From Candidatus Tepidifontimicrobium thermophilum (GTDB lineage Bacteria > Sysuimicrobiota > Sysuimicrobiia > Sysuimicrobiales > Sysuimicrobiaceae), in assembly GCA_031459915.1 (NCBI GenBank), contig JAVKHO010000008.1:51276-115275 (forward strand): a stretch of DNA of 64,000 nucleotides, written 5' to 3'. Shown here piece by piece: positions 536 to 52,426 of this stretch. The notes beneath the pieces are model-generated. The model searched no databases. It was not told the origin of the DNA and saw nothing but the letters and a program-made list of their open reading frames with translations. The stretch's first letter is position 1. Every line of letters begins with the position of its first letter. The position numbers and the translations under genes are program-made.

Positions 536-1249
536 CTAACCAAGGGGCTTGCGGGCCCGGAGGGTGACCGACCGCAGGGACACCCTCCAAGGATCGCCGC
601 AGTCGGCCCGCGACTCCTCCAGGACTTCCGCGGCCTGGAAGCCCGCCTCCGCCAAGAGCCGGAAGTACTCCCGCAAGCTCACCGCGCCGGCCACGCAAGC
701 GCTCCAGGCCCGTGGGTCCTCCCGGAGTTCCGGGGAGAGGGGGCGGTCTGCTACCACGTCGGAGACCACGAGGCGTCCACCGGGCCGCAGCACCCGGTGG
801 GCTTCCCGGAACGCCTGCGCCTTGTCCGGGACCAGGTTCACCACGCAGTTGCTGAGGACCACGTCCGCGAAGCCCTCGGGCAGCGGCAGCGACTCGAGTT
901 CAGCCACCACGAAGCGGGCGTTGGCGACACCCAGGGCCGCGGCGTTCCGCCGGGCCAGGACGACCATCTCCGCCGTCATGTCCACGCCCACCGCCTGCCC
1001 GTAGGGTCCGACCGCCTGAGCGGCACGGAGCACCTCCAGACCTGCGCCGCTTCCGAGGTCCACCACGACTTCTCCTGGGGCCAGGTCTGCGTGGGAGACT
1101 GGGCTTCCGCAACCCAACGACAACGGCACCACACCGGAGTTCTGTGAAGCCGGTGGGGGCGCACAGCCACACCCACAGCCAGCGCTACCCTCCCGGGCGA
1201 GCGCGGCGTAATGCGACCGCACTGCGTGCTTCACCGCCCCGGCGGACAT
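536..1249 (-). CDS. arsM: arsenite S-adenosylmethionine methyltransferase
   Basis: SAM motif VVDLGSGAG. ArsM cysteines retained (GCGCGC, LGCGSP, SNCVVNL, WSACVAGA). Downstream of arsR. Confidence 0.88.
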   Translation of the reverse strand: MSAGAVKHAVRSHYAALAREGSAGCGCGCAPPPASQNSGVVPLSLGCGSPVSHADLAPGEVVVDLGSGAGLEVLRAAQAVGPYGQAVGVDMTAEMVVLARRNAAALGVANARFVVAELESLPLPEGFADVVLSNCVVNLVPDKAQAFREAHRVLRPGGRLVVSDVVADRPLSPELREDPRAWSACVAGAVSLREYFRLLAEAGFQAAEVLEESRADCGDPWRVSLRSVTLRARKPLG

Positions 1250-39824: not shown

Positions 39825-41441
39825 TCAGCCAGACCGCGCACCCACGCCCGATACGGCACCAGTCCCGAAGACCCGCTGGTAGACGTCCTCCGCGTGGCTG
39901 GTGGGTAGCGGCTCCGCCTCCACCATGCGGTACGTGCGCCGGCCCTGGGCGTCCCGCTCCGCCCGCAGGAACAGCACGGAGCCGGATCGCCGGGCGCGGA
40001 AGCGATCCGCCAGTTCGAAGAAGTGAGTAACGAAGAACACGCGGACCCCCGCTTCCGTCAACGCGTCCAGAACCTGGCAGGCGATCTCCGACCCCTCGCG
40101 CTCGTGGGTGGCGGAGAAGGACTCGTTGCACAGGAACACCGAGCGCGCGGTGGCGAGGTCCACGAGGGTTCGCATGCGACGGAGTTCCTCCACGAACTTG
40201 CCGGACTCCAGGCGCGGGTCCTCCTCCCGCTTGAAGTGGGTCAGCACCCCGTCACAGACGCTTACGGCGAAGGACTGGGCGGGCACGAACAGGCCCGCCT
40301 GCGCCATCAGCCAGGCGATCCCCACGCTCCGGAGGAAGGTGGTCTTGCCCCCGGAGTTGGGCCCGGTGATCAGGACGAGGCGCTTGCCGTTCGCCTCGAG
40401 GTCGTTGGGGACGACAGTTCGGTCGGTTGCCAGGGCCAGCACGGGGTCGTAGAGGCCTCGGGCGGAAAGGTTGTAGCCTGCGGGATGCACGGAGGGCAGG
40501 CAGGTGGGGAATCCGCGCCGGCGAAGCTGAGTGTGCAGCCGCAGACCGCCCACGTAGAAGGCGAGTTCGGCGCGCAGGCAGGAGAAGAAGTCCCGGACGT
40601 GGTCGGCGGCCTGGCCCACGGCCGTGGCTGCTGAGGCCAGAGCCCGGTCCCGCAGGGCCTCCAGGGCCTTGACACCCGCCTCATCGCGAGGAGACAGCTC
40701 GAAGGTGTAGGCATCCTGGCCCCGACGGAACCACGCCTTCCACCGCTCCAGCCAGCTCCGGGGGCCCTCCGGAGGCGGGTGCAGGAGGAGGTCGGTGGGC
40801 TTGTTGGCAGGCCCAAGACGCGCGCTCCAAAGGTGGCCGTGTGGTAGCCTCAGAGCGTCCAGGTGGTGTTGCATCTCACCGAGATAGGAGTCCTCCAGGT
40901 CACGGTGCAGCGCTGCGAACAAGCGCCTCCAGCCCTCGCTGTGGAAGCGAGGCGCGTGGCGATCCGCGGCGGACTTCAGCCGGCGGAGGGAGCCCAGCAG
41001 CGCCGCGAGAGTCCCGACGGACTCGCGCAGCACCCAGTCGGGGTAGCGGGCGAGGACGCCCAGATACCGGCCTTTGAGTTTGTCTGCGGCCTCCAGACTG
41101 ACCCCATACAGCTCCAGAACAGCGTCCGGGTTGTCCAGACAGTCTGCCAGTACGGCCTGTCGGTGGGCCACCACAGCAGGGTCTGCGGACGTGCCCTCCA
41201 GCAGGAGCCTCCGGCTGACCTCGAAGACCAGGTCGTCCTCCCCGGCCATGGCCTCCAGGAGGGGTAACAGCCCCAGGTCCTGGACTAGGTCGTCCACGTT
41301 TGGGGGAAGTCCCGCGGAAGGATCGAAGCCTGGGGGAGGGGCAGTGTGGTGGCCGGCCCGCAGGCCCGCTCGGACCGTGGCGGCCTGCAGGGCCCAGCGC
41401 CAGTCGAAATCCCGGTCGGGGTACAGTAGGCGCGGGGTCAT
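39825..41441 (-). CDS. MutS-domain-V ATPase lacking the mismatch-binding domain (MutS4-like subunit B)
   Basis: ITGPNSGGKTT, THFKREE, NESFSAT and VTHF. About 540 aa with no N-terminal domain I. Confidence 0.85.
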   Translation of the reverse strand: MTPRLLYPDRDFDWRWALQAATVRAGLRAGHHTAPPPGFDPSAGLPPNVDDLVQDLGLLPLLEAMAGEDDLVFEVSRRLLLEGTSADPAVVAHRQAVLADCLDNPDAVLELYGVSLEAADKLKGRYLGVLARYPDWVLRESVGTLAALLGSLRRLKSAADRHAPRFHSEGWRRLFAALHRDLEDSYLGEMQHHLDALRLPHGHLWSARLGPANKPTDLLLHPPPEGPRSWLERWKAWFRRGQDAYTFELSPRDEAGVKALEALRDRALASAATAVGQAADHVRDFFSCLRAELAFYVGGLRLHTQLRRRGFPTCLPSVHPAGYNLSARGLYDPVLALATDRTVVPNDLEANGKRLVLITGPNSGGKTTFLRSVGIAWLMAQAGLFVPAQSFAVSVCDGVLTHFKREEDPRLESGKFVEELRRMRTLVDLATARSVFLCNESFSATHEREGSEIACQVLDALTEAGVRVFFVTHFFELADRFRARRSGSVLFLRAERDAQGRRTYRMVEAEPLPTSHAEDVYQRVFGTGAVSGVGARSG

Positions 41442-42970
41442 GGGACGAAGCGCTGGCGGACGTCGTGGTACGTGAGTCGGTACCTCTGGGCCAGGGCCTC
41501 CGCGTACGCGCGCCCGTCCGCTGGACGACGCAGCACGCGGAAGGTGCGCCCTTCGGGCTGGCCTGGCGGCACCGTGGCTACCAGGCTCACGGTCTTCTCG
41601 TTCAGGGAAGCCAGCTCATCGAGGAACGTCACCCACACGCACAGGCCGCCAATCTCCAAGAGCCGGCCCAGCAGCCGTCGGCTCAGGGTGCGGGCGTCGC
41701 GGAGGGCGGTGGAGGAGAGGATCTCGTTGACGATCACCACACTTTTGGGGGTCGCAACCTGGAGGATCTCACGGATCCTCAGAAGGTCGTCTTCCAGTTT
41801 GCCGTGCAGGTCCAGCGTGTACTCTCCGCGGGGAAAGTGGGTGAGGACGTGGTCCGGCACCGGAAGGGCGGCCTGCCGGCCAGGGACCGGGCAACCGAGC
41901 GAAGCCAGGTAGAAGACCTGACCCACCGCGCGGGCGAAGGTAGTCTTTCCGCCCTGGTTGGGACCGGTGACCACCAGGGCCCGCTCCGGAGAACGGAAGA
42001 GGAAGTCGTTGAGGACCGGCACCCGGCCGTGCGCCACCAGCTTCGCGGCCAGTGCGAGGTCGAAGCAGCCCTGGGCGAAGGCTTCTGAATTGTCCGCGCG
42101 CAGGGTGGGCAAGCAGAAGGGCAGGCCTGCCGCCTCGAGGGGAGCGAGGAAGTCTAGGTAGCCCAGGTAGAACTGGGCCTCCCGGTCGAAGGCGTCGATC
42201 CAACGTGCCGGCAGTCCCCCGCACGTTCTCCGGAAGTCCGCCACCCGAAAGAACAGGTCCGGGTTCAGGCGGGAAACCCCTTCCAGGATCTGCGCTTCCA
42301 CGTGGTTCAGCTCCGCGGAGTGCCGGAACTCGAAGGCGTACGGGGTGCCGTGGGCCTGTCGGAAACGCTCGAAGGTGGACCGCACCACTTCCGCGTAGTC
42401 GGGCTCCCCCCGGTAGGGGCGGACGGTGACCCTCAGGCCCTGGACGAGCACCGCAAAGCGCAGGGACGATAGCTCCGCCTGCAGGCTCTCGGCGGCCTCC
42501 GCGAGGCTGCGGAATGCGGGGGAAGCGGCGTACGCGGCCAGCAGGTCGCGGAAGCGCACGAGCCCACGGCTGTGGAGCGGACAGGAGGACAGGCCCTCCA
42601 ACAGCGCGAGGACTGCCTGCACGTAGAGGTGGGCCGCGTCAAGGAACCAGCGGTCTTTCTCCAGCGTGGAGTATGCCTTGTCCGCACGGCGCAGGTGGGC
42701 CCGCACCGCGCGGAGGGCCGAAGCGAAGGCACGGACCGCGTCCGACACTCGGGGCTCCCGGAAATCGCGGAAGACCTCCTGGCGGAAGGAGACCGTGTCG
42801 CTGTCCCGCAGCGGGGTGTAGAAGACGGGTTCCAGGCCGTACTCCCCCCGGTCCGCCACGATGGCCTCCACCACCCGGTCCAGCTCTAAGTCCCGCAGGC
42901 ATGCGGGCGGTCGTTCCCGGAGCGCCGGAGGTTGGCCTGAAGGAAAAAGGAGGCTCGAAACCTCGTCCAT
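41438..42970 (-). CDS. MutS-domain-V ATPase lacking the mismatch-binding domain (MutS4-like subunit A)
   Basis: VTGPNQGGKTT, THFPRGE and NEILSST. Overlapping stop/start with its partner. Confidence 0.85.
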   Translation of the reverse strand: MDEVSSLLFPSGQPPALRERPPACLRDLELDRVVEAIVADRGEYGLEPVFYTPLRDSDTVSFRQEVFRDFREPRVSDAVRAFASALRAVRAHLRRADKAYSTLEKDRWFLDAAHLYVQAVLALLEGLSSCPLHSRGLVRFRDLLAAYAASPAFRSLAEAAESLQAELSSLRFAVLVQGLRVTVRPYRGEPDYAEVVRSTFERFRQAHGTPYAFEFRHSAELNHVEAQILEGVSRLNPDLFFRVADFRRTCGGLPARWIDAFDREAQFYLGYLDFLAPLEAAGLPFCLPTLRADNSEAFAQGCFDLALAAKLVAHGRVPVLNDFLFRSPERALVVTGPNQGGKTTFARAVGQVFYLASLGCPVPGRQAALPVPDHVLTHFPRGEYTLDLHGKLEDDLLRIREILQVATPKSVVIVNEILSSTALRDARTLSRRLLGRLLEIGGLCVWVTFLDELASLNEKTVSLVATVPPGQPEGRTFRVLRRPADGRAYAEALAQRYRLTYHDVRQRFVP

Positions 42971-45945: not shown

Positions 45946-46706
45946 GGTCGGGTGGGCGACCGGATGGGTCGCGGCCGCACGTCCGGGGCGGCCCTGATCT
46001 CGTTGGGGTCGCGGCCGGCCAACACCTCCAGGGCCCGCGTCCAGCTGACACCCTGCTCCAGGGTGAGTCCCTCATGCCGGAAGCGGTAGTCGTGCTTGCG
46101 GACAAGCTCGGAGAGGTCAGCCTCCAGCCGCGCCAGGGCTTGCCGTTGGTCCTCCAGGAGGCGCTTGAGCTGTTCTGCAGACTTGGCCAGGGAGGCGGCG
46201 AGAACCAGGTGGTGCAGACACAGGGGCGCCGGACCCGCAAGGGCCTGCCGCACGTGAGGGTCCGCAGAGTGCTCCAGTAGGCTTGCCACGTACACCTCCT
46301 CCATACGCTGACGGTGCAGGCAGGCAGGGCACGGGGCAACGGGGCCCAGGAGGAGGTGGAGGGCAGACTCCGCAGCCCGTCGGCGTCCGGGCCGACTCCG
46401 GAGCGCGGCATCCAGTCGGTCCCGCAGGGCTCCCACGAGGTCCCGGTACACGATGGCGACCCCCAGGACTGGGTTGCGCTGCGCCGGCAGCGCCCACGCG
46501 TGCTCTGGGCAGAACCCCCAACTGGCCCGCAGCTCGTCGCGCATTTCAGGGTCGTTCACGCGCTCGTACAGGAAGTTGTCCAGGAACCGCTGGACCGCGT
46601 GGGTGACGAGGCGGCAGACGGGACATCCGCCAGACGCCAGGGCCTCCCGTACCCTGGCGAAGACCAGGTCGTCCCGCCGCGCGCCGCCGTGGGCGTCACC
46701 ACGCAC
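45942..46706 (-). CDS. tandem CxxC/CxxH putative zinc-binding protein (DUF6062-like)
   Basis: CPVC..YE.VND, GFCPEH, CPAC, LCLHH and RKHDYRF. Start estimated at GTG 46706. Confidence 0.75.
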
Positions 46707-47559
46707 GGCGCACGCTCCGCAGGAACCGTCCGATCCAGCTCCGGATGGGCTGCCCTTTTCCCGCATGCGGCGCCGGCGGGGAGGGAACCCGCGCGTCCGG
46801 AGGTGCAGGGGCAAGTCCGCCCGGCCGCCTTCCCCACTCGGCCAGGGATCGGCGGGCCTGTTCCACGGAGGCCTCCAGGCCCACCAGGTTCATGCGCAGC
46901 CCGCGCACGGCTTCGTCCGCCAGGTACGCGCGGTGCCGCAGGGTCGCAAGCTCGGCCCGTGCGGCCCCGAGGGCCCGCAGCGCGTCGTCCGGCGCAGGCC
47001 ACAGGTGTACCGCCGCGCCGTAACCGAGGAGGATCCGCAGGCCTTCTGGCTCGGTCCAACCCTCCGTCCGCAGGACGCCGTCCACCGCCTGGGCTGCCTC
47101 CTCGTCCAGGGAAACGTGCACCGTGGCCAGGACGTCGTGTTCGCCCGCGGGCGTAAGCTGCCCTTTTCCAAGCCCTTTTTCCGGCGGCCCGGACGGTGCC
47201 CCCTGCTGGCTCCGCAGGGCGAACAGATCCCGGCGCAGCCGCGTGTACTCCACGCTGAGGCTAGCCACCTGTTCACGGAGGATGTCCCGCTCCCTCTCGC
47301 GAGCCAGGGTCCGGGCGCGCATGGACAGCGCGTGCGCAAGGGCTTCCCGGCGCTGCAGCTCGAGCCGCACGCCGTCCCGATCGGGCGCCCTGGACGCGGC
47401 CAGTTCCTCCCACGTCCTCTGGTCGGCTGCGTACCGGCGCGCGCCCTCGGCGACAAGCCACGCGAGGCCGACCTCGAGGGGCCAGAAACCAAGGGAGGAC
47501 AGGCCCTCCGCCAGCTGCGCCAGGTCCTCGCCAGACAGGGTCAGAATCAGGTCCCGCAT
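46696..47559 (-). CDS. hypothetical coiled-coil protein with internal duplication
   Basis: First ATG directly after the riboswitch-2 terminator. Two similar halves. Overlaps the next start. Confidence 0.7.
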
Positions 47560-47566
47560 CCCGAAC

Positions 47567-47598
47567 AAAAAGCTCCTACTGGCAACCCAGTAGGAGCT
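47567..47598 (-). terminator. intrinsic terminator of fluoride riboswitch 2
   Basis: Perfect 12-bp hairpin AGCTCCTACTGG-gttg-CCAGTAGGAGCT plus a T-run. Overlaps the aptamer 3' end. Confidence 0.9.
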
Positions 47599-47642
47599 AT
47601 CAACCCGGCGAACCGGGTACACAAGGGCGAGCCCCATCGCCC
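47590..47642 (-). ncRNA. fluoride riboswitch (crcB motif) 2
   Basis: GGGCG-AU-GGGGCU-CGCCC-UUGUGU-ACCCGG-UUCG-CCGGGU-UGAU-AGCUCC-UAC. Same fold as copy 1 with compensatory changes. Confidence 0.92.
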
Positions 47643-47650
47643 GCACGTCC

Positions 47651-47679
47651 AAGATAAGGGGGCCGACGACCCTCGTCAA
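47651..47679 (-). promoter_or_regulatory. sigma70 promoter of the riboswitch-2 operon (TTGACG-17-TATCTT)
   Basis: -35 at 47674-47679 and -10 at 47651-47656. Confidence 0.7.
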
Positions 47680-47724
47680 CCGGCCCTGAGGACCGGGCGA
47701 CTCTCGGGAGCGGTCGAGCGGCCC

Positions 47725-47756
47725 TTGACCTTCCAGGGTCGTGGAAGGTTTACCGT
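47725..47756 (+). promoter_or_regulatory. MerR-family metal-responsive promoter with ACCTTCCA-N6-TGGAAGGT dyad
   Basis: TTGACC-20 bp-TACCGT. The elongated spacer holds a perfect 8-bp inverted repeat resembling CueR-type boxes. Confidence 0.88.
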
Positions 47757-47778
47757 CTTCCGGGAGGAGGTGGTGCGC

Positions 47779-50007
47779 GTGACTTGGAGCCCGCAGCGGC
47801 TGCACCTCAAGCTGGGTGGGATGCACTGCTCCCTCTGTGTGGAGTCCGTGCGCAAGGCGGTCCTGCGGCTCCCCGGGGTACGGTCCGTGCACGTGTCCAT
47901 CGCGCACGAGGAGGCCCTGGTGGAGTACGAGCCGGACCGCCTGTCCGCCGAGGCCATCTCCAGGGCGCTGGAGGACATCGGGTTCCGCGTGCGCCCCCCG
48001 GACGAGGCTATCCGGGTCCAGGAGGAAGAGACCGAGCTGCGCCGGGCTCGCGGTCTGGCGTGGTGGGCCGGCGTCCTGCTCGGGCTGGCGAGCGTCCTGA
48101 TGGTAGCCAGCGCCCTCTGGGGTCCGAGCCGGCCGCGGGCCCTCGCTATGGGCGGCCTGGCCGTGTTCGCGGCTGTGGGCCCCGGCCGCTGGGTGTTGCG
48201 CAACGCCTGGCAGTCCCTCCGCCGGGGCATTCTGAACCAGGACGTGCTGGCCGCCGCATCCGCCCTCGCGGGCGTGGCGGGAGGGACCGTGGGCTTGGTA
48301 CTTCCGGGTTTCCCTCCCGGGGAGTTCTTCGGGGCTGCGGTGTTCGTCTTCGCCTTCCACATCGTCGGCGGCTACCTGTCGGTCGCGGTGCACGTGCGGG
48401 CGTCGCAGTCCGTGCGCCGGCTCCTGAGCCTGGCGCCGTCTACCGCGTGGCGGCTGTTGCCCGACGGTTCCGAGGAGGAGGTCCCCGCGAGCAACCTGCG
48501 GCCTGGAGACCGGGTACGGGTCCGCCCGGGCGAGCGCGTTCCCGCGGACGGGGTGGTGGTGCAGGGTGCTTCGGCGGTGGACGAGAGCCTGCTGACCGGG
48601 GAACCCATGCCGGTAGACAAGTCTGCGGGCGACGAGGTGGTGGGTGGGTCGCTGAACCAGCTGGGGAGCCTCGTGGTGGAGGTGACCCGGGTCGGTCCGG
48701 ACAGCTTCCTCCAGGCGGTGGCGCGGCACGTGGCGGAGGCCCGGGCCCTCAAGCCGGGGGTGCTGCGGCTGGTGGATTGGGTCCTCCTGTGGTTCGTGCC
48801 GGTCGTCTTCGCTGCCGGAGCTGCGGGATTCCTCGCTTGGACGCTTGGTGGAATGCTGGTCGTGGGCCGACCCGACTGGGCGCGGGCGGCCTTCGCGGCC
48901 TTGAGCGCGCTCGTGATGGGCTACCCCTGCGCCCTGGGGATGGCGACGCCGCTCGCCATCGTCCGGGCTTCCGGCGAGGCGGCCCGACGCGGGATCCTCA
49001 TGCGGTCCGGGGAAGCCTTCCAGCTTCTGGGTCGAGTGGACACCTTCGTGCTGGACAAGACCGGCACCGTGACGGAGGGCAGGCCCCGTCTGGCGGCCTG
49101 CAGGACCCTCGGGATGGCGGAGGAGGAGCTCCTGCGGCTGGCCGCCGGAGCCGAGAGCCCATCTGAGCACCCCTTGGCCAGGGCGGTGGTGGAGGGTGCC
49201 GCGACGCGAGGAATCGGCGTGCCTGGTGCTGCGGACTTCGGGGCTCACCCGGGTCAGGGCATCGAGGCCCGGGTGGACGGGCGATGGGTCCTAGCCGGCA
49301 GCGCTAGGTTCCTGCGCGAACGCGGGGTGGACACAGCACCGCTTGCATCCGTCGCGCGAGAGCTACAAGGCCGGGGCCAGACCACGGTCCTGGTAGCCGT
49401 GGACGGGCGCCCCGCTGGTGTTTTGGGCATCGAAGACCCGCTCAAGCGCGACGCGGCGGAAACGGTGCGTGAGCTGCGGGGCAGAGATTGCCGGGTCGTC
49501 CTCCTGACGGGCGACGACCGGCGCACCGCCCAGGCCGTGGCGCAGGAGGCCTGCATCGAGGAGGTCCTGAGTGAGGTCCTGCCGGGGCAGAAGGCGGAGG
49601 TGGTCCGGGCGCTGCAGGCACAGGGACGGCGCGTGGCCATGGTGGGAGACGGGATCAACGACGCGCCGGCCCTCATGCAGGCGGACGTGGGGGTGGCGAT
49701 GGGCGCGGGCGCCGACATCGCAGTGGACTCCGCGGACGTGGTGCTGGTGAGCGGACGCCTGGGCGCCCTGGTGGACGCGGTGGAGCTGGCCCGCCGCAGC
49801 TACGGCCTGACCGTGGGCAACGTGGCCGTAGCTCTGGCGTTCAACGGAGTGGGGGTTGTGGCGGCCACCAGCGGGTTGGTCAGGCCGGTGTGGGCCATGC
49901 TGGCGATGGCGGTGAGTGTGGGGCTCGTCTTGGCCAGGTCTTTGGTGGGCCGCCTGGGGCGGGTGCGGGAGCGCCAACTCGCAGGAGGTGCTCCGCTGCA
50001 GGAATAA
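47779..50007 (+). CDS. heavy-metal translocating P1B-type ATPase (atypical YPC motif)
   Basis: HMA GMHCSLC, TGE, YPCALG, DKTGT, SEHP and GDGINDAP. Confidence 0.93.
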
Positions 50008-50042
50008 GGAATATGGGAGACAGGGCGCCAGGAGGTGAACCC

Positions 50043-50498
50043 GTGCGCGGACGGGTGAGCGAGAAGGTCGGAGCCCGGATCGGCGAGCTGGCTCGCGGGT
50101 TCGGCCTCAACCCGAGGACCCTGCGGTACTACGAGTCGGTGGGCCTGCTGCGGCCGCGGAGGACGGCCTCCGGATACCGGGTGTACGATGACCGGGACCG
50201 GGACCGGTTGCGGTTCGTCCTGCGGGCAAAGCGGGCGGGGCTGACGCTGCGGGAGATGGCAGAGATCCTGACGCTGTGGGATCGCGGGGAGGCGCCGTGC
50301 GGGTACGTGCGAGGCTGGCTGGAGCGGAGGCTGCGGGAGGTGGAGGCCCAGCTGAGAGCCCTGCGAGTGTTGCGGCAGGAGCTGGGGCGGCTGCGCCGCC
50401 GGGCGGCCCGACGTCCCCGCGGGGAGCCTCCCTGCGTGTGCCCGATCCTCGAGGAGGCTCGCGACGGTTCGGGCCCGTCTGCGTGGCGGGCCGGGTGA
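50043..50498 (+). CDS. MerR-family heavy-metal-responsive regulator
   Basis: RIGELA..TLRYYE, GYRVY, and Cys in APCGY and PPCVCPIL. GGAGGT SD. Confidence 0.92.
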   Translation: MRGRVSEKVGARIGELARGFGLNPRTLRYYESVGLLRPRRTASGYRVYDDRDRDRLRFVLRAKRAGLTLREMAEILTLWDRGEAPCGYVRGWLERRLREVEAQLRALRVLRQELGRLRRRAARRPRGEPPCVCPILEEARDGSGPSAWRAG

Positions 50499-50584
50499 AG
50501 CGGCCCGTGCGGATCTCAGAGTCCCGCAATAAAGCGGAGCCGCAGACTCGTCTTTGCTGGTAGACGCCGGGTCGGAGGGTTGGG

Positions 50585-51134
50585 GTGACGGGGACGGTGG
50601 GGCCTGCGTTGGACTATGAGGCGTGTGTGCGGCCGCACCTGGACTACCTCTACGGTCTGGCGGTCCGTCTGTGCGGCAGCCGGACGGCCGCGGAGGACCT
50701 CCTGCAGGACGCGCTGCTGCGGGCGTTCCGGGCCTTAGGAACCGGGAGCACCCCCGGCGGTGGCTGACCCGAGTCCTCACCAGTGCCTTCCACGACCGCA
50801 CCCGGACGGAGTGGAGGAGGACTTCGACCTGTTCGACAAGATCGCCGAGGAAGACCCGTTCCCCTACTCCGACCGCGTGCACCTGGACTTCCTGGAGCTG
50901 TTCGACGACGCGCGGATCCTCGAGGTGCTGCAGGGTCTGGTCCCGCAGCACCGGGTCGCGGTGATCCTGGCCTATGTGTACGGCTTCACGGCGCGGGAGA
51001 TCGGCGAAATCACGGGCCGGCCTATGGGGACCGTACTCAGCTGGCTGCACCGGGGGCGGAAGCAGCTGGAACGGGAGCTGTGGGAGTACGCGGTCAGCCA
51101 TCACCTTATCCACCGGGGGGCAGTCAGGAGATGA
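50585..51134 (+). pseudogene. ECF sigma factor, twice frameshifted
   Basis: Region 2 (AEDLLQDALLRAF), then LRNREHPRRWL and region 4 (GTVLSWLHRGRK), spread over three frames. Shifts near 50733 and 50810. Confidence 0.82.
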
Positions 51135-51370
51135 TCAGTTGCCGGGAAGCCGTCGCACGCCTGTGGGCGTACCTGGACCGCAACCTGGGGCGTTTGCAGG
51201 AACGAGAACTGGAGGAGCACCTGGGGTTGTGCCGGCACTGCTGCGGGGAGCTGGAGTTCGCGCGTCACGTGCGGGCGCTCCTGCAGCGGCCGGGCGTAGC
51301 TGTGGAGCTGCCCGCAGACACCCGGGCGAAGCTGGAGGACTTCATCCGTCAGTTGGGAGGGGGGGCATGA
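51131..51370 (+). CDS. zf-HC2 zinc-binding anti-sigma factor
   Basis: MISC..LWAYLD and EEHLGLCRHCC (HxxxCxxC). Overlaps the sigma stop. Confidence 0.88.
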   Translation: MISCREAVARLWAYLDRNLGRLQERELEEHLGLCRHCCGELEFARHVRALLQRPGVAVELPADTRAKLEDFIRQLGGGA

Positions 51371-52188
51371 GGGAGCACGCGCACGCGGGCGCACAACCGT
51401 CCGAGGACCTATTGGGCCAGGAGACGATCAAGGAGTTGGTACGCGAGGCTTACCGGGCGGTGGTCGGGACGACCACGGGCGTGGCCGGGAGGCTGTACGA
51501 CCCGGAGCAGCTGGCCCGGCTGCCCCGCGGCGCCGTCGAGCAGGCTCTGGGGGTGGGCAACCCCGTGCGCGCCGCCGGCCTGCAGCCAGGAGAGGTGGTC
51601 CTGGACCTGGGGTGCGGTGGGGGCATCGACACCACCCTGGCGGCCCATGCGGTGGCGCCCGGCGGCAGAAGCATCGGCCTGGACATGCTGCCGGAGATGC
51701 TGGAGGTGGCGGCGCGCCACGCCGCGGAGGCCGGCGTGGCCAACGTCGAGTGGATGCTGGGGGAGATGGAGGCCATCCCGCTGCCCGAGGCGAGCGTGGA
51801 CGTGGTGCTCAGCAACGGGGTGATCAACCTCTCGCCCCGCAAGTCCCGGGCCTTCGCGGAGATCTACCGGGTCCTGCGGCCGGGCGGCCGCATGGTGGTG
51901 GCGGACATTGTGGTGGACGAGGACCTCCCCCCGGAGATCCTAACGAGCGCCGCTGCCTGGGCCGGTTGACTCTCGGGCGCTTTGGCGGAGCGTGTCTTCG
52001 CCAGCAAAGTGCAGAAGGTCGGGTTTGTGGACATCCAGCGGGGAGAGGAGTTGCCCTTCGGGGTGGACGAGTGCGAGCAGTACCCGCTGTTCACGCCGGA
52101 GCTGATTGCCCTGATGCGCCGGCTCATTCCGCCGGAACGGCAGGCGACGGTGGCCCGGTCGGTGATCTTCACGGCCCGTAAGCCGTAG
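51367..52188 (+). CDS. ArsM-like SAM methyltransferase, probable selenoprotein (UGA 51967-51969 = Sec)
   Basis: VLDLGCGGG and SNGVINL. In-frame TGA in WAG-U-LSGAL aligns to the Cys of WSA-C-VAGAV in arsM. The frame continues to TAG 52186-52188, and a SECIS-like hairpin follows the TGA. Confidence 0.8.
51977..52012 (+). promoter_or_regulatory. bacterial SECIS-like stem-loop
   Basis: GCGCUUU-GGCGGAG-cgugu-CUUCGCC-(agc)-AAAGUGC. The apical loop starts 21 nt after UGA and has GU at loop positions 2-3. Confidence 0.7.
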
Positions 52189-52255: not shown

Positions 52256-52426
52256 ATGACAAGCCAGGCGGTGGTGAACGGGGTGGACGTGGGGCAGCTC
52301 GTGGCGACGGTGGAAGCCATCAAGGCGAATCCGGATCTCGCGCGGTTTACGGGCCCCGGCTTGGTGGAGGTCCGCCGCTGGCCCGTGGGCCGGACGGGCG
52401 CCGCCGCGACGCCGACTCCGCAGTAG
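52256..52426 (+). pseudogene. truncated OsmC/Ohr-family gene remnant
   Basis: GGAGGA SD then MTSQAVVNGVDVGQLVATVEAIKANPDLARF, an N-terminus typical of OsmC-like proteins. Unrelated sequence and a stop follow after 56 aa. Confidence 0.6.

Follow-up and report, generated by a model that had tools for sequence, protein, structure and literature searches.

A predicted selenocysteine methyltransferase of ArsM-like fold, lacking the arsenic-binding cysteine pair and encoded beside a SigH/RsrA-like pair

An apparent stop codon in an ArsM-like gene of Candidatus Tepidifontimicrobium thermophilum almost certainly encodes selenocysteine (Sec), as judged from comparison with its orthologs, and a selenoprotein of 273 residues is predicted. 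The gene lies in a stretch of 64,000 nucleotides (hereafter the window; Table 1) and is a real, unannotated selenoprotein of a known family, on a variant branch that fails the definition of ArsM. The branch likely methylates something other than inorganic arsenite, to judge by its active-site residues and by its gene neighbours, which are of thiol-stress and not of arsenic type. We propose that the enzyme is a SAM methyltransferase acting on a sulfur or selenium substrate on its single Sec, as part of a thiol-stress response, a reading that we consider quite possible though short of probable.

Table 1. Features of the methyltransferase operon, in window positions
Feature	Position	Strand	Basis
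Promoter motif of ECF type (GCAATAA, 16 nt, CGTC), which the operon's own sigma is predicted to recognise	50526..50552	+	conserved; strict pattern once in genome
SigH-like ECF sigma gene, disrupted relative to L101 by deletions of 10 nt (after 50736) and 25 nt (after 50810)	50585..51134	+	comparison with close relative L101
RsrA-like zinc anti-sigma factor (zf-HC2), intact	51131..51370	+	profile matches
ArsM-like class I SAM methyltransferase, 273 aa, predicted Sec201	51367..52188	+	frame, alignment, fold
In-frame UGA at the CmArsM Cys224 column, UxxG motif	51967..51969	+	35 TGA and 2 TGC in 37 distinct close orthologs
SECIS-like core: 8-bp stem, 5-nt loop (51991-51995), G at loop position 2, then U	51983..52003	+	conserved pairing
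OsmC-like gene remnant (compared with L100, lacks about 640 nt and has about 60 nt inverted)	52256..52411	+	both forms occur in populations

The in-frame UGA and its hairpin

The methyltransferase frame holds a single TGA, at residue 201, and continues for 72 sense codons beyond it, as had been noticed in an earlier reading of the window made from the sequence only (the sequence-only reading). That reading also placed the UGA exactly on a conserved cysteine, correctly: U201 aligns with the cysteine of a canonical arsM in the window (536-1249, minus strand) and with Cys224 of CmArsM. An assembly error at the TGA was ruled out by the contigs of four of four DNA runs, which span the codon with no alternative letter listed; one of the runs is possibly the source sample.

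The genome, which is 96% complete, carries selA, selB, tRNA-Sec (anticodon UCA) and selD clustered on one contig, so the absence of Sec machinery, named in the sequence-only reading as a reason to abandon the idea, does not apply. The cluster (G000 C16:4772-14174) comprises selA-selB-selC, selD(Sec) and fdhA(Sec). In-frame TGA codons of their own occur in selD, in the adjacent fdhA and in a second formate-dehydrogenase-like gene of this genome (C23:183815-185635).

Homologs were aligned for Cys/UGA pairs at this column, as the sequence-only reading had suggested. Pooling 50 full-length close orthologs from all loci and reducing them to 37 at <97% identity left 35 with TGA and 2 with TGC, and no other internal stop was found in the 37. 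The TGA is kept in the 35 down to 68% nucleotide identity and is never TAA or TAG. In the species collection, the 10 closest loci have TGA in 8 cases and TGC in 2, and a natural Sec/Cys pair (P0001 and P0002) is 80% identical. Conservation after the UGA is about that before it (85% vs 82% in 44 orthologs), and the tail differs from L101 by 5 synonymous changes and 1 non-synonymous change, indicating purifying selection. As a tally and not a test, because kin are not independent, selA was found in 15 of the 16 genomes with the TGA form among the window genome and 40 relatives, the exception being 72% complete, and neither selA nor selB was found in the two Cys-form genomes, which are 72% and 83% complete. 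No selA or selB match came from four further genomes of the Cys-form genus either, of which three are 94-96% complete.

What marks a bacterial selenoprotein is thus present: an in-frame UGA, coding conserved on both sides of it, Cys homologs, and selA, selB, selC and selD in the genome. The opposite reading, a nonsense mutation within an operon that is decaying, draws on the broken sigma and osmC genes that adjoin it. However, the constancy of the codon among the 35 orthologs, the purifying selection on the tail and the Sec machinery leave it a practically negligible probability, and we regard it as refuted on comparative grounds.

The sequence-only reading had also described a hairpin at 51977-52012. 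Its computed fold agrees with that description, the loop lying 21 nt past the UGA, but the lower stem is not conserved: the upper 8 bp are paired in 39 of 39 TGA orthologs, and the lower 6 bp are 45% paired. In the alignment the stem is 97.7% paired, a value reached in 3 of 500 shuffles, against 24-66% in slid controls. The evidence for the hairpin is its conservation; folding energy alone is unremarkable, with a modest z of -1.6 over 64 nt (11 of 200 shuffles) and a z of -2.7 (3 of 200 shuffles) for a hand-picked stretch of 36 nt. Variable pairs in the upper stem comprise one two-sided and two one-sided cases, and there is little compensatory change (2 pairs, 3 cells). Of 108 degenerate conserved codons, none varies less than the two in the loop (GTC in 34/34 and CGT in 34/35, against a median of 0.61), CGT being otherwise rare (43 of 714 Arg codons elsewhere). 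One Cys ortholog (L026) has synonymous changes at the loop codons; the other (L022) retains the hairpin and looks, from its sequence, like a recent reversion. With a 5-nt loop, 8 bp, G at position 2, 21 nt from the UGA and -17 kcal/mol, the element falls within the bacterial SECIS consensus given in the available text of PMC13188914 (3-9 nt loop, 4-16 bp stem, G in loop positions 1-2, 16-37 nt from the UGA, MFE at most -7.5).

The single Rfam match was at chance level. An alternative fold with a GGA loop, as in selD here and in distant homologs, was rejected, as it has only 2 base pairs in the clade and conflicts with the ACG variants. Distant TGA forms (L194-L197, L039, L143 and L145) carry another hairpin, whose GGA loop is spaced as in this genome's selD, which suggests that the SECIS element changed within the branch.

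The claim that the gene is a selenoprotein is therefore strongly supported by the Sec genes, the TGA/TGC orthologs and the conserved hairpin. Reading of the UGA as Sec through SelB, tRNA-Sec and the hairpin would be as good as certain, on evidence from comparison and not from protein data. The gene had further been called hidden, which holds for annotation but not for the family, already in a published catalogue. Among 120 listed protein matches, 100 end one residue before the Sec codon and the 20 full-length ones all have Cys there; the finding of Sec201 flags many database entries as truncated at residue 200.

Fold, cysteine pattern and operon context

By sequence and by fold, the closest solved relatives are ArsM/AS3MT (predicted structure, mean pLDDT 95). 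The top Foldseek matches are ArsM, with TM about 0.7 and 32-36% identity, and the ESM Atlas returned arsenite-methyltransferase names only. The ArsM fold and its SAM-binding motif are kept, while the ligands Cys72 and Cys174 of CmArsM are replaced by V63 and G151, and U201 occupies the Cys224 column; there is no Cys44 equivalent because residues 1-82 are without cysteine. That the other ArsM cysteines are lost, as previously stated, is thus right for Cys72 and Cys174 but not for the whole protein, in which C83 and C236 remain. C83, within the SAM motif, occurs in 47 of 51 orthologs and C236 in 48 of 51, and both are replaced in many full-length relatives, position 201 being the sole invariant Cys/Sec of the wider family. 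A conserved helical insert (residues about 229-262) is specific to the family.

According to the available text of PMC5552862, a gene counted as arsM needs at least three cysteines. Of Cys44, Cys72, Cys174 and Cys224, at least three including the Cys174-Cys224 pair define ArsM; the Sec enzyme has the 224 position only, as Sec, and fails because of the changes of Cys72 to Val and Cys174 to Gly. The best NCBIfam match is NF008823 (arsenite methyltransferase), at 229 bits under a cut-off of 263, a weak test because the window's canonical arsM also falls short (244 bits). This canonical gene, in a minus-strand unit at 536-2125, is 45% identical to the Sec enzyme and keeps the Cys72, Cys174 and Cys224 columns and an N-terminal CGCGC. 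Upstream of it are genes for a regulator of the ArsR family and for a GNAT acetyltransferase, the latter presumably ArsN-like.

The loss of Cys174 marks a branch. In aligned matches that were not de-duplicated, the Sec column is TGC or TGT in 99 of 99 that keep Cys174, and 58 of 58 TGA cases are without it. In a FastTree analysis of 132 rows, made up of 72 without Cys174 and 60 drawn at random from the 191 with it, the no-Cys174 label requires 3 changes vs 43.8 when shuffled. A branch with support of 86 has 71 of the 72 no-Cys174 rows on one side, which at this support does not prove a single origin; the 50-row subclade of the query has support of 99. The no-Cys174 side includes Chloroflexota, Pseudomonadota, Thermodesulfobacteriota, Ignavibacteriota and one archaeon. 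Domain fusions are also seen. P0122 is a 608-aa fusion of a CMD domain, a canonical three-Cys ArsM domain and a no-Cys174-type domain ending just before the Sec column, and C-terminal TusA-like or cupin fusions occur in P0125 and P0126 and in P0028, P0040, P0092 and P0130. TusA-like domains were found in two relatives, in one of them above the Pfam cut-off.

The branch also differs in its neighbourhood. In counts that were not de-duplicated, with one lineage dominant and unequal flanks, ars genes (ArsR, the window's GNAT gene, ArsC or Acr3) lie near 1 of 73 no-Cys174 loci vs 75 of 101 Cys174 loci (1 of 36 vs 57 of 74 in loci of 5 kb or more), and the no-Cys174 loci thus lack the ars operon context expected of ArsM. 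By the same counts, biased in that neighbour queries came from no-Cys174 loci and ArsC/Acr3 queries from canonical loci, a sigma gene is present at 59 of 73 no-Cys174 loci vs 1 of 101 Cys174 loci, an anti-sigma gene at 58 of 73 vs 0 of 101, and CMD/AhpD-like (27), OsmC (25), DUF1326 (10), cupin (9) and DsrE (2) neighbours occur at the 73 no-Cys174 loci and each at 0 of 101 Cys174 loci. A canonical arsM adjoins the branch gene in 2 of 92 loci (L211 and L215). At L043, L151 and L169, the sigma/anti-sigma pair is flanked by two single-Cys methyltransferases of the branch. A DsrE-family gene in the same operon of two relatives (L107:5393-5752 and L109:5562-5921, plus strand) has an in-frame TGA in UxxC and is, from its sequence, a candidate second selenoprotein of a catalogued kind.

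The promoter motif stands ahead of the operon's first gene and precedes osmC where osmC comes first. A relaxed form of the pattern matched 48 of 56 close loci, two or more of these matches being off-site. No wider regulon was found in the genome, which has 1 strict and 12 relaxed matches, the full AATAA being in one only, and no sigma-70 promoter was found at the locus. The best matches of the sigma are TIGR02947 (107 of a cut-off of 252) and TIGR03988, both under cut-off. A second SigH-like sigma gene of the genome (C10:6733-7500), 35% identical, is intact and accompanied by a zinc anti-sigma gene, with no match to the operon's promoter motif upstream of it. Directly upstream of the operon are a P-type ATPase-like gene and a MerR regulator (46453-50498, plus strand), in a layout shared with L101, L103 and L127; from its motifs, we take the gene upstream of merR to be a heavy-metal, copA-like P-type ATPase. 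Elsewhere in the window (39825-42970, minus strand), two tandem ORFs of about 510-540 aa presumably encode relatives of MutS-domain ATPases.

The pseudogenes that had been noticed beside the methyltransferase are real, sigma and osmC being broken, and bear on expression and not on the meaning of the UGA. For the sigma deletions of 10 and 25 nt, no restoring insertion is listed in the four DNA runs; the osmC deletion is shared by one run, and two other runs continue into an intact gene. The methyltransferase itself shows no decay yet, with 22 synonymous and 3 non-synonymous codon differences from L101 over residues 20-273. With sigma frameshifted and osmC deleted, expression of this copy may be poor. 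A search for a plus-strand terminator found none, and with the copA-like gene and merR upstream on the same strand, read-through is possible; any expression here would rely on it or on another sigma. Three RNA runs (X13, X16 and X20) have contigs over pieces of the gene, at low depth and possibly from DNA, and hence were not counted as expression. The methyltransferase copies of L029 and G006 are frameshifted with the TGA kept, which suggests that decay of the operon is frequent.

Possible substrates

In the part of PMC6138428 available to us, Cys174 and Cys224 are described as the arsenic site, needed in both methylation steps; methylation of As(III) by CmArsM requires all four of its cysteines, and for DMAs(III) Cys224 is the sole ligand. 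As only the Cys224 position is left in the Sec enzyme, its substrate is likely bound by one bond. Two substrates suggest themselves: a sulfur or selenium species, in view of the neighbours (a thiol-stress sigma pair, OsmC, AhpD, DsrE and TusA), and dimethylarsenite, in view of the position kept and the few arsM tandems. Our preference for the first, attached to Sec through a single bond, is accordingly tentative. With one nucleophile, the enzyme would bind a persulfide, thiol or selenide, for instance, through a selenosulfide or diselenide link to Sec, and the substrate atom bound to Sec would attack the SAM methyl group. A partner reductase, either the AhpD/CMD-like or OsmC-like neighbour or a thioredoxin, could then free the methylated product and regenerate the selenol, and the operon would be turned on by the SigH/RsrA-like pair acting at its conserved promoter. 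The view in the sequence-only reading that the substrate is not classical As(III) gains indirect support from the lost Cys174-Cys224 pair and the absence of ars neighbours. Mercury, one of the options listed there, can be set aside on chemical grounds: SAM donates a methyl cation, and mercury is thus an unlikely substrate for a SAM SN2 methyltransferase.

Evidence against a sulfur or selenium substrate comes from the arsM tandems (L211 and L215), the P0122 fusion and the holding of DMAs(III) on Cys224 alone, which point to arsenic. Sec201 might alone hold DMAs(III), which has one free bond, and make trimethylarsine or its oxide in a late step of arsenic (or antimony) methylation that complements a canonical ArsM. 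We rank this second among the readings and consider it rather unlikely, since ars genes lie near just 1 of 73 loci, control is SigH/RsrA-like and not by ArsR, and canonical arsM stands alongside in only 2 of 92 loci, even though the tandems and fusion, the retained Cys224 position said to hold DMAs(III) alone in PMC6138428 as far as available, and the closest solved structures, all ArsM/AS3MT, speak for it, as do the runs containing the stretch, which are mostly hot-spring metagenomes. The reading as a plain As(III) methyltransferase for which one Sec suffices, possibly aided by C236 or C83, deserves little credence. The gene is under the cut-off of its best NCBIfam match (NF008823, 229 of 263 bits), has one of the four conserved cysteines when surveys require at least three, and lacks ars context, and C236 and C83 are replaced in many full-length relatives; on the other hand, C236 is kept in 48 of 51 close orthologs, and a single-cysteine TtArsM is reported in the accessible part of bioRxiv 10.1101/2021.07.12.452139 to methylate As(III).

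It is also conceivable, if improbable, that Sec201 is itself methylated by SAM and serves as a methyl carrier or redox switch, the acceptor being a protein or an organic metabolite unrelated to metalloids. One invariant nucleophile near the SAM site (by homology), the conserved family-specific helical insert and the cupin fusions of relatives would fit such a role, but no precedent for this fold was found in the literature searched.

As a selenoprotein, the enzyme is a routine addition, the family and its UxxG site being catalogued already. A broader claim, which we find doubtful at present, would be that of a widespread, undescribed ArsM-like branch in which a four-Cys site became a single Sec/Cys and which acts as a selenol-based sulfur or selenium methyltransferase under its own SigH/RsrA-like switch. 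Annotation would have missed the branch because the gene is cut at the UGA, and arsM surveys would have left it out because the cysteines are missing. If the claim is true, methanethiol, dimethyl sulfide or methylated selenium would arise by a previously unrecognised route in hot springs, soils and sediments. The Sec/Cys pair P0001/P0002 makes the substrate question directly testable, and either answer, sulfur or selenium methylation or a dedicated dimethylarsenite step, bears on the cycling of volatile S, Se or As.

Comparison with known systems

With ArsM/AS3MT (CmArsM, 4FR0/6CX6; CrArsM, 5EVJ; NF008823), the Sec enzyme shares the fold, the SAM motif and the Cys224 position; it differs in lacking Cys44, Cys72 and Cys174, in having Sec at 224 and an extra helical insert, and in the absence of ars context. 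TtArsM of Thermus thermophilus is a precedent for activity with one cysteine, yet, compared by published description only and as far as its available text goes, its C77 is described as contacting SAM, two histidines are proposed as arsenic ligands and its repressor is of the ArsR type.

Like SigR-RsrA and SigH-RshA (ECF12), the operon has a SigH-like sigma, a soluble zinc anti-sigma at +1 and a conserved promoter upstream, although its sigma scores well short of the TIGR02947 cut-off. In the main text and part of the supplement of PMC7826278, no ECF group appears with a neighbour of ArsM type.

A Sec arsenite methyltransferase with UxxG has been catalogued, citing Fomenko 2007, in the available text of PMC13188914, and is likewise listed in that of PMC9312934 and PMC2398784; the entries consulted give WP_011987699 as an example and 8 sequences in the GOS survey. 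It has the same motif and is ArsM-type, and from the motif it would occupy the same column. Every Sec form found here belongs to the branch that lacks the arsenic-binding pair, and the name 'arsenite methyltransferase selenoprotein' may therefore be incorrect in their case. No description of the single-Sec/Cys branch or its operon was found in the literature searched, which covered few subscription journals, and the available main text on deep-Sep does not mention any methyltransferase; the loss of the cysteines may already be discussed in Fomenko 2007 or in Haft and Tolstoy 2025.

Three fused selenoprotein families are also described in the available part of PMC13188914, citing Haft and Tolstoy 2025. 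The fused NCBIfam families are NF041537 (ArsM/AhpD), NF041536 (ArsM/DUF2284) and NF047649 (MTase/UXPK-star), which the query matches at 182/510, 161/575 and 173/460, all under cut-off, as with NF008823. Membership calls for a score over the HMM cut-off, a second domain and two or more Sec; the Sec enzyme is stand-alone, with a single domain and one UGA, and belongs to a different lineage. Among 201 genomes, one NF041537 member (L210) exceeds the cut-off, and no sigma/anti-sigma context was found at its locus. It is 34% identical to the Sec enzyme and has the same Val/Gly/Sec pattern, which means that a catalogued family already includes this active site. In L210 the AhpD domain is part of the protein itself; the present operon often has a separate CMD/AhpD-like gene instead.
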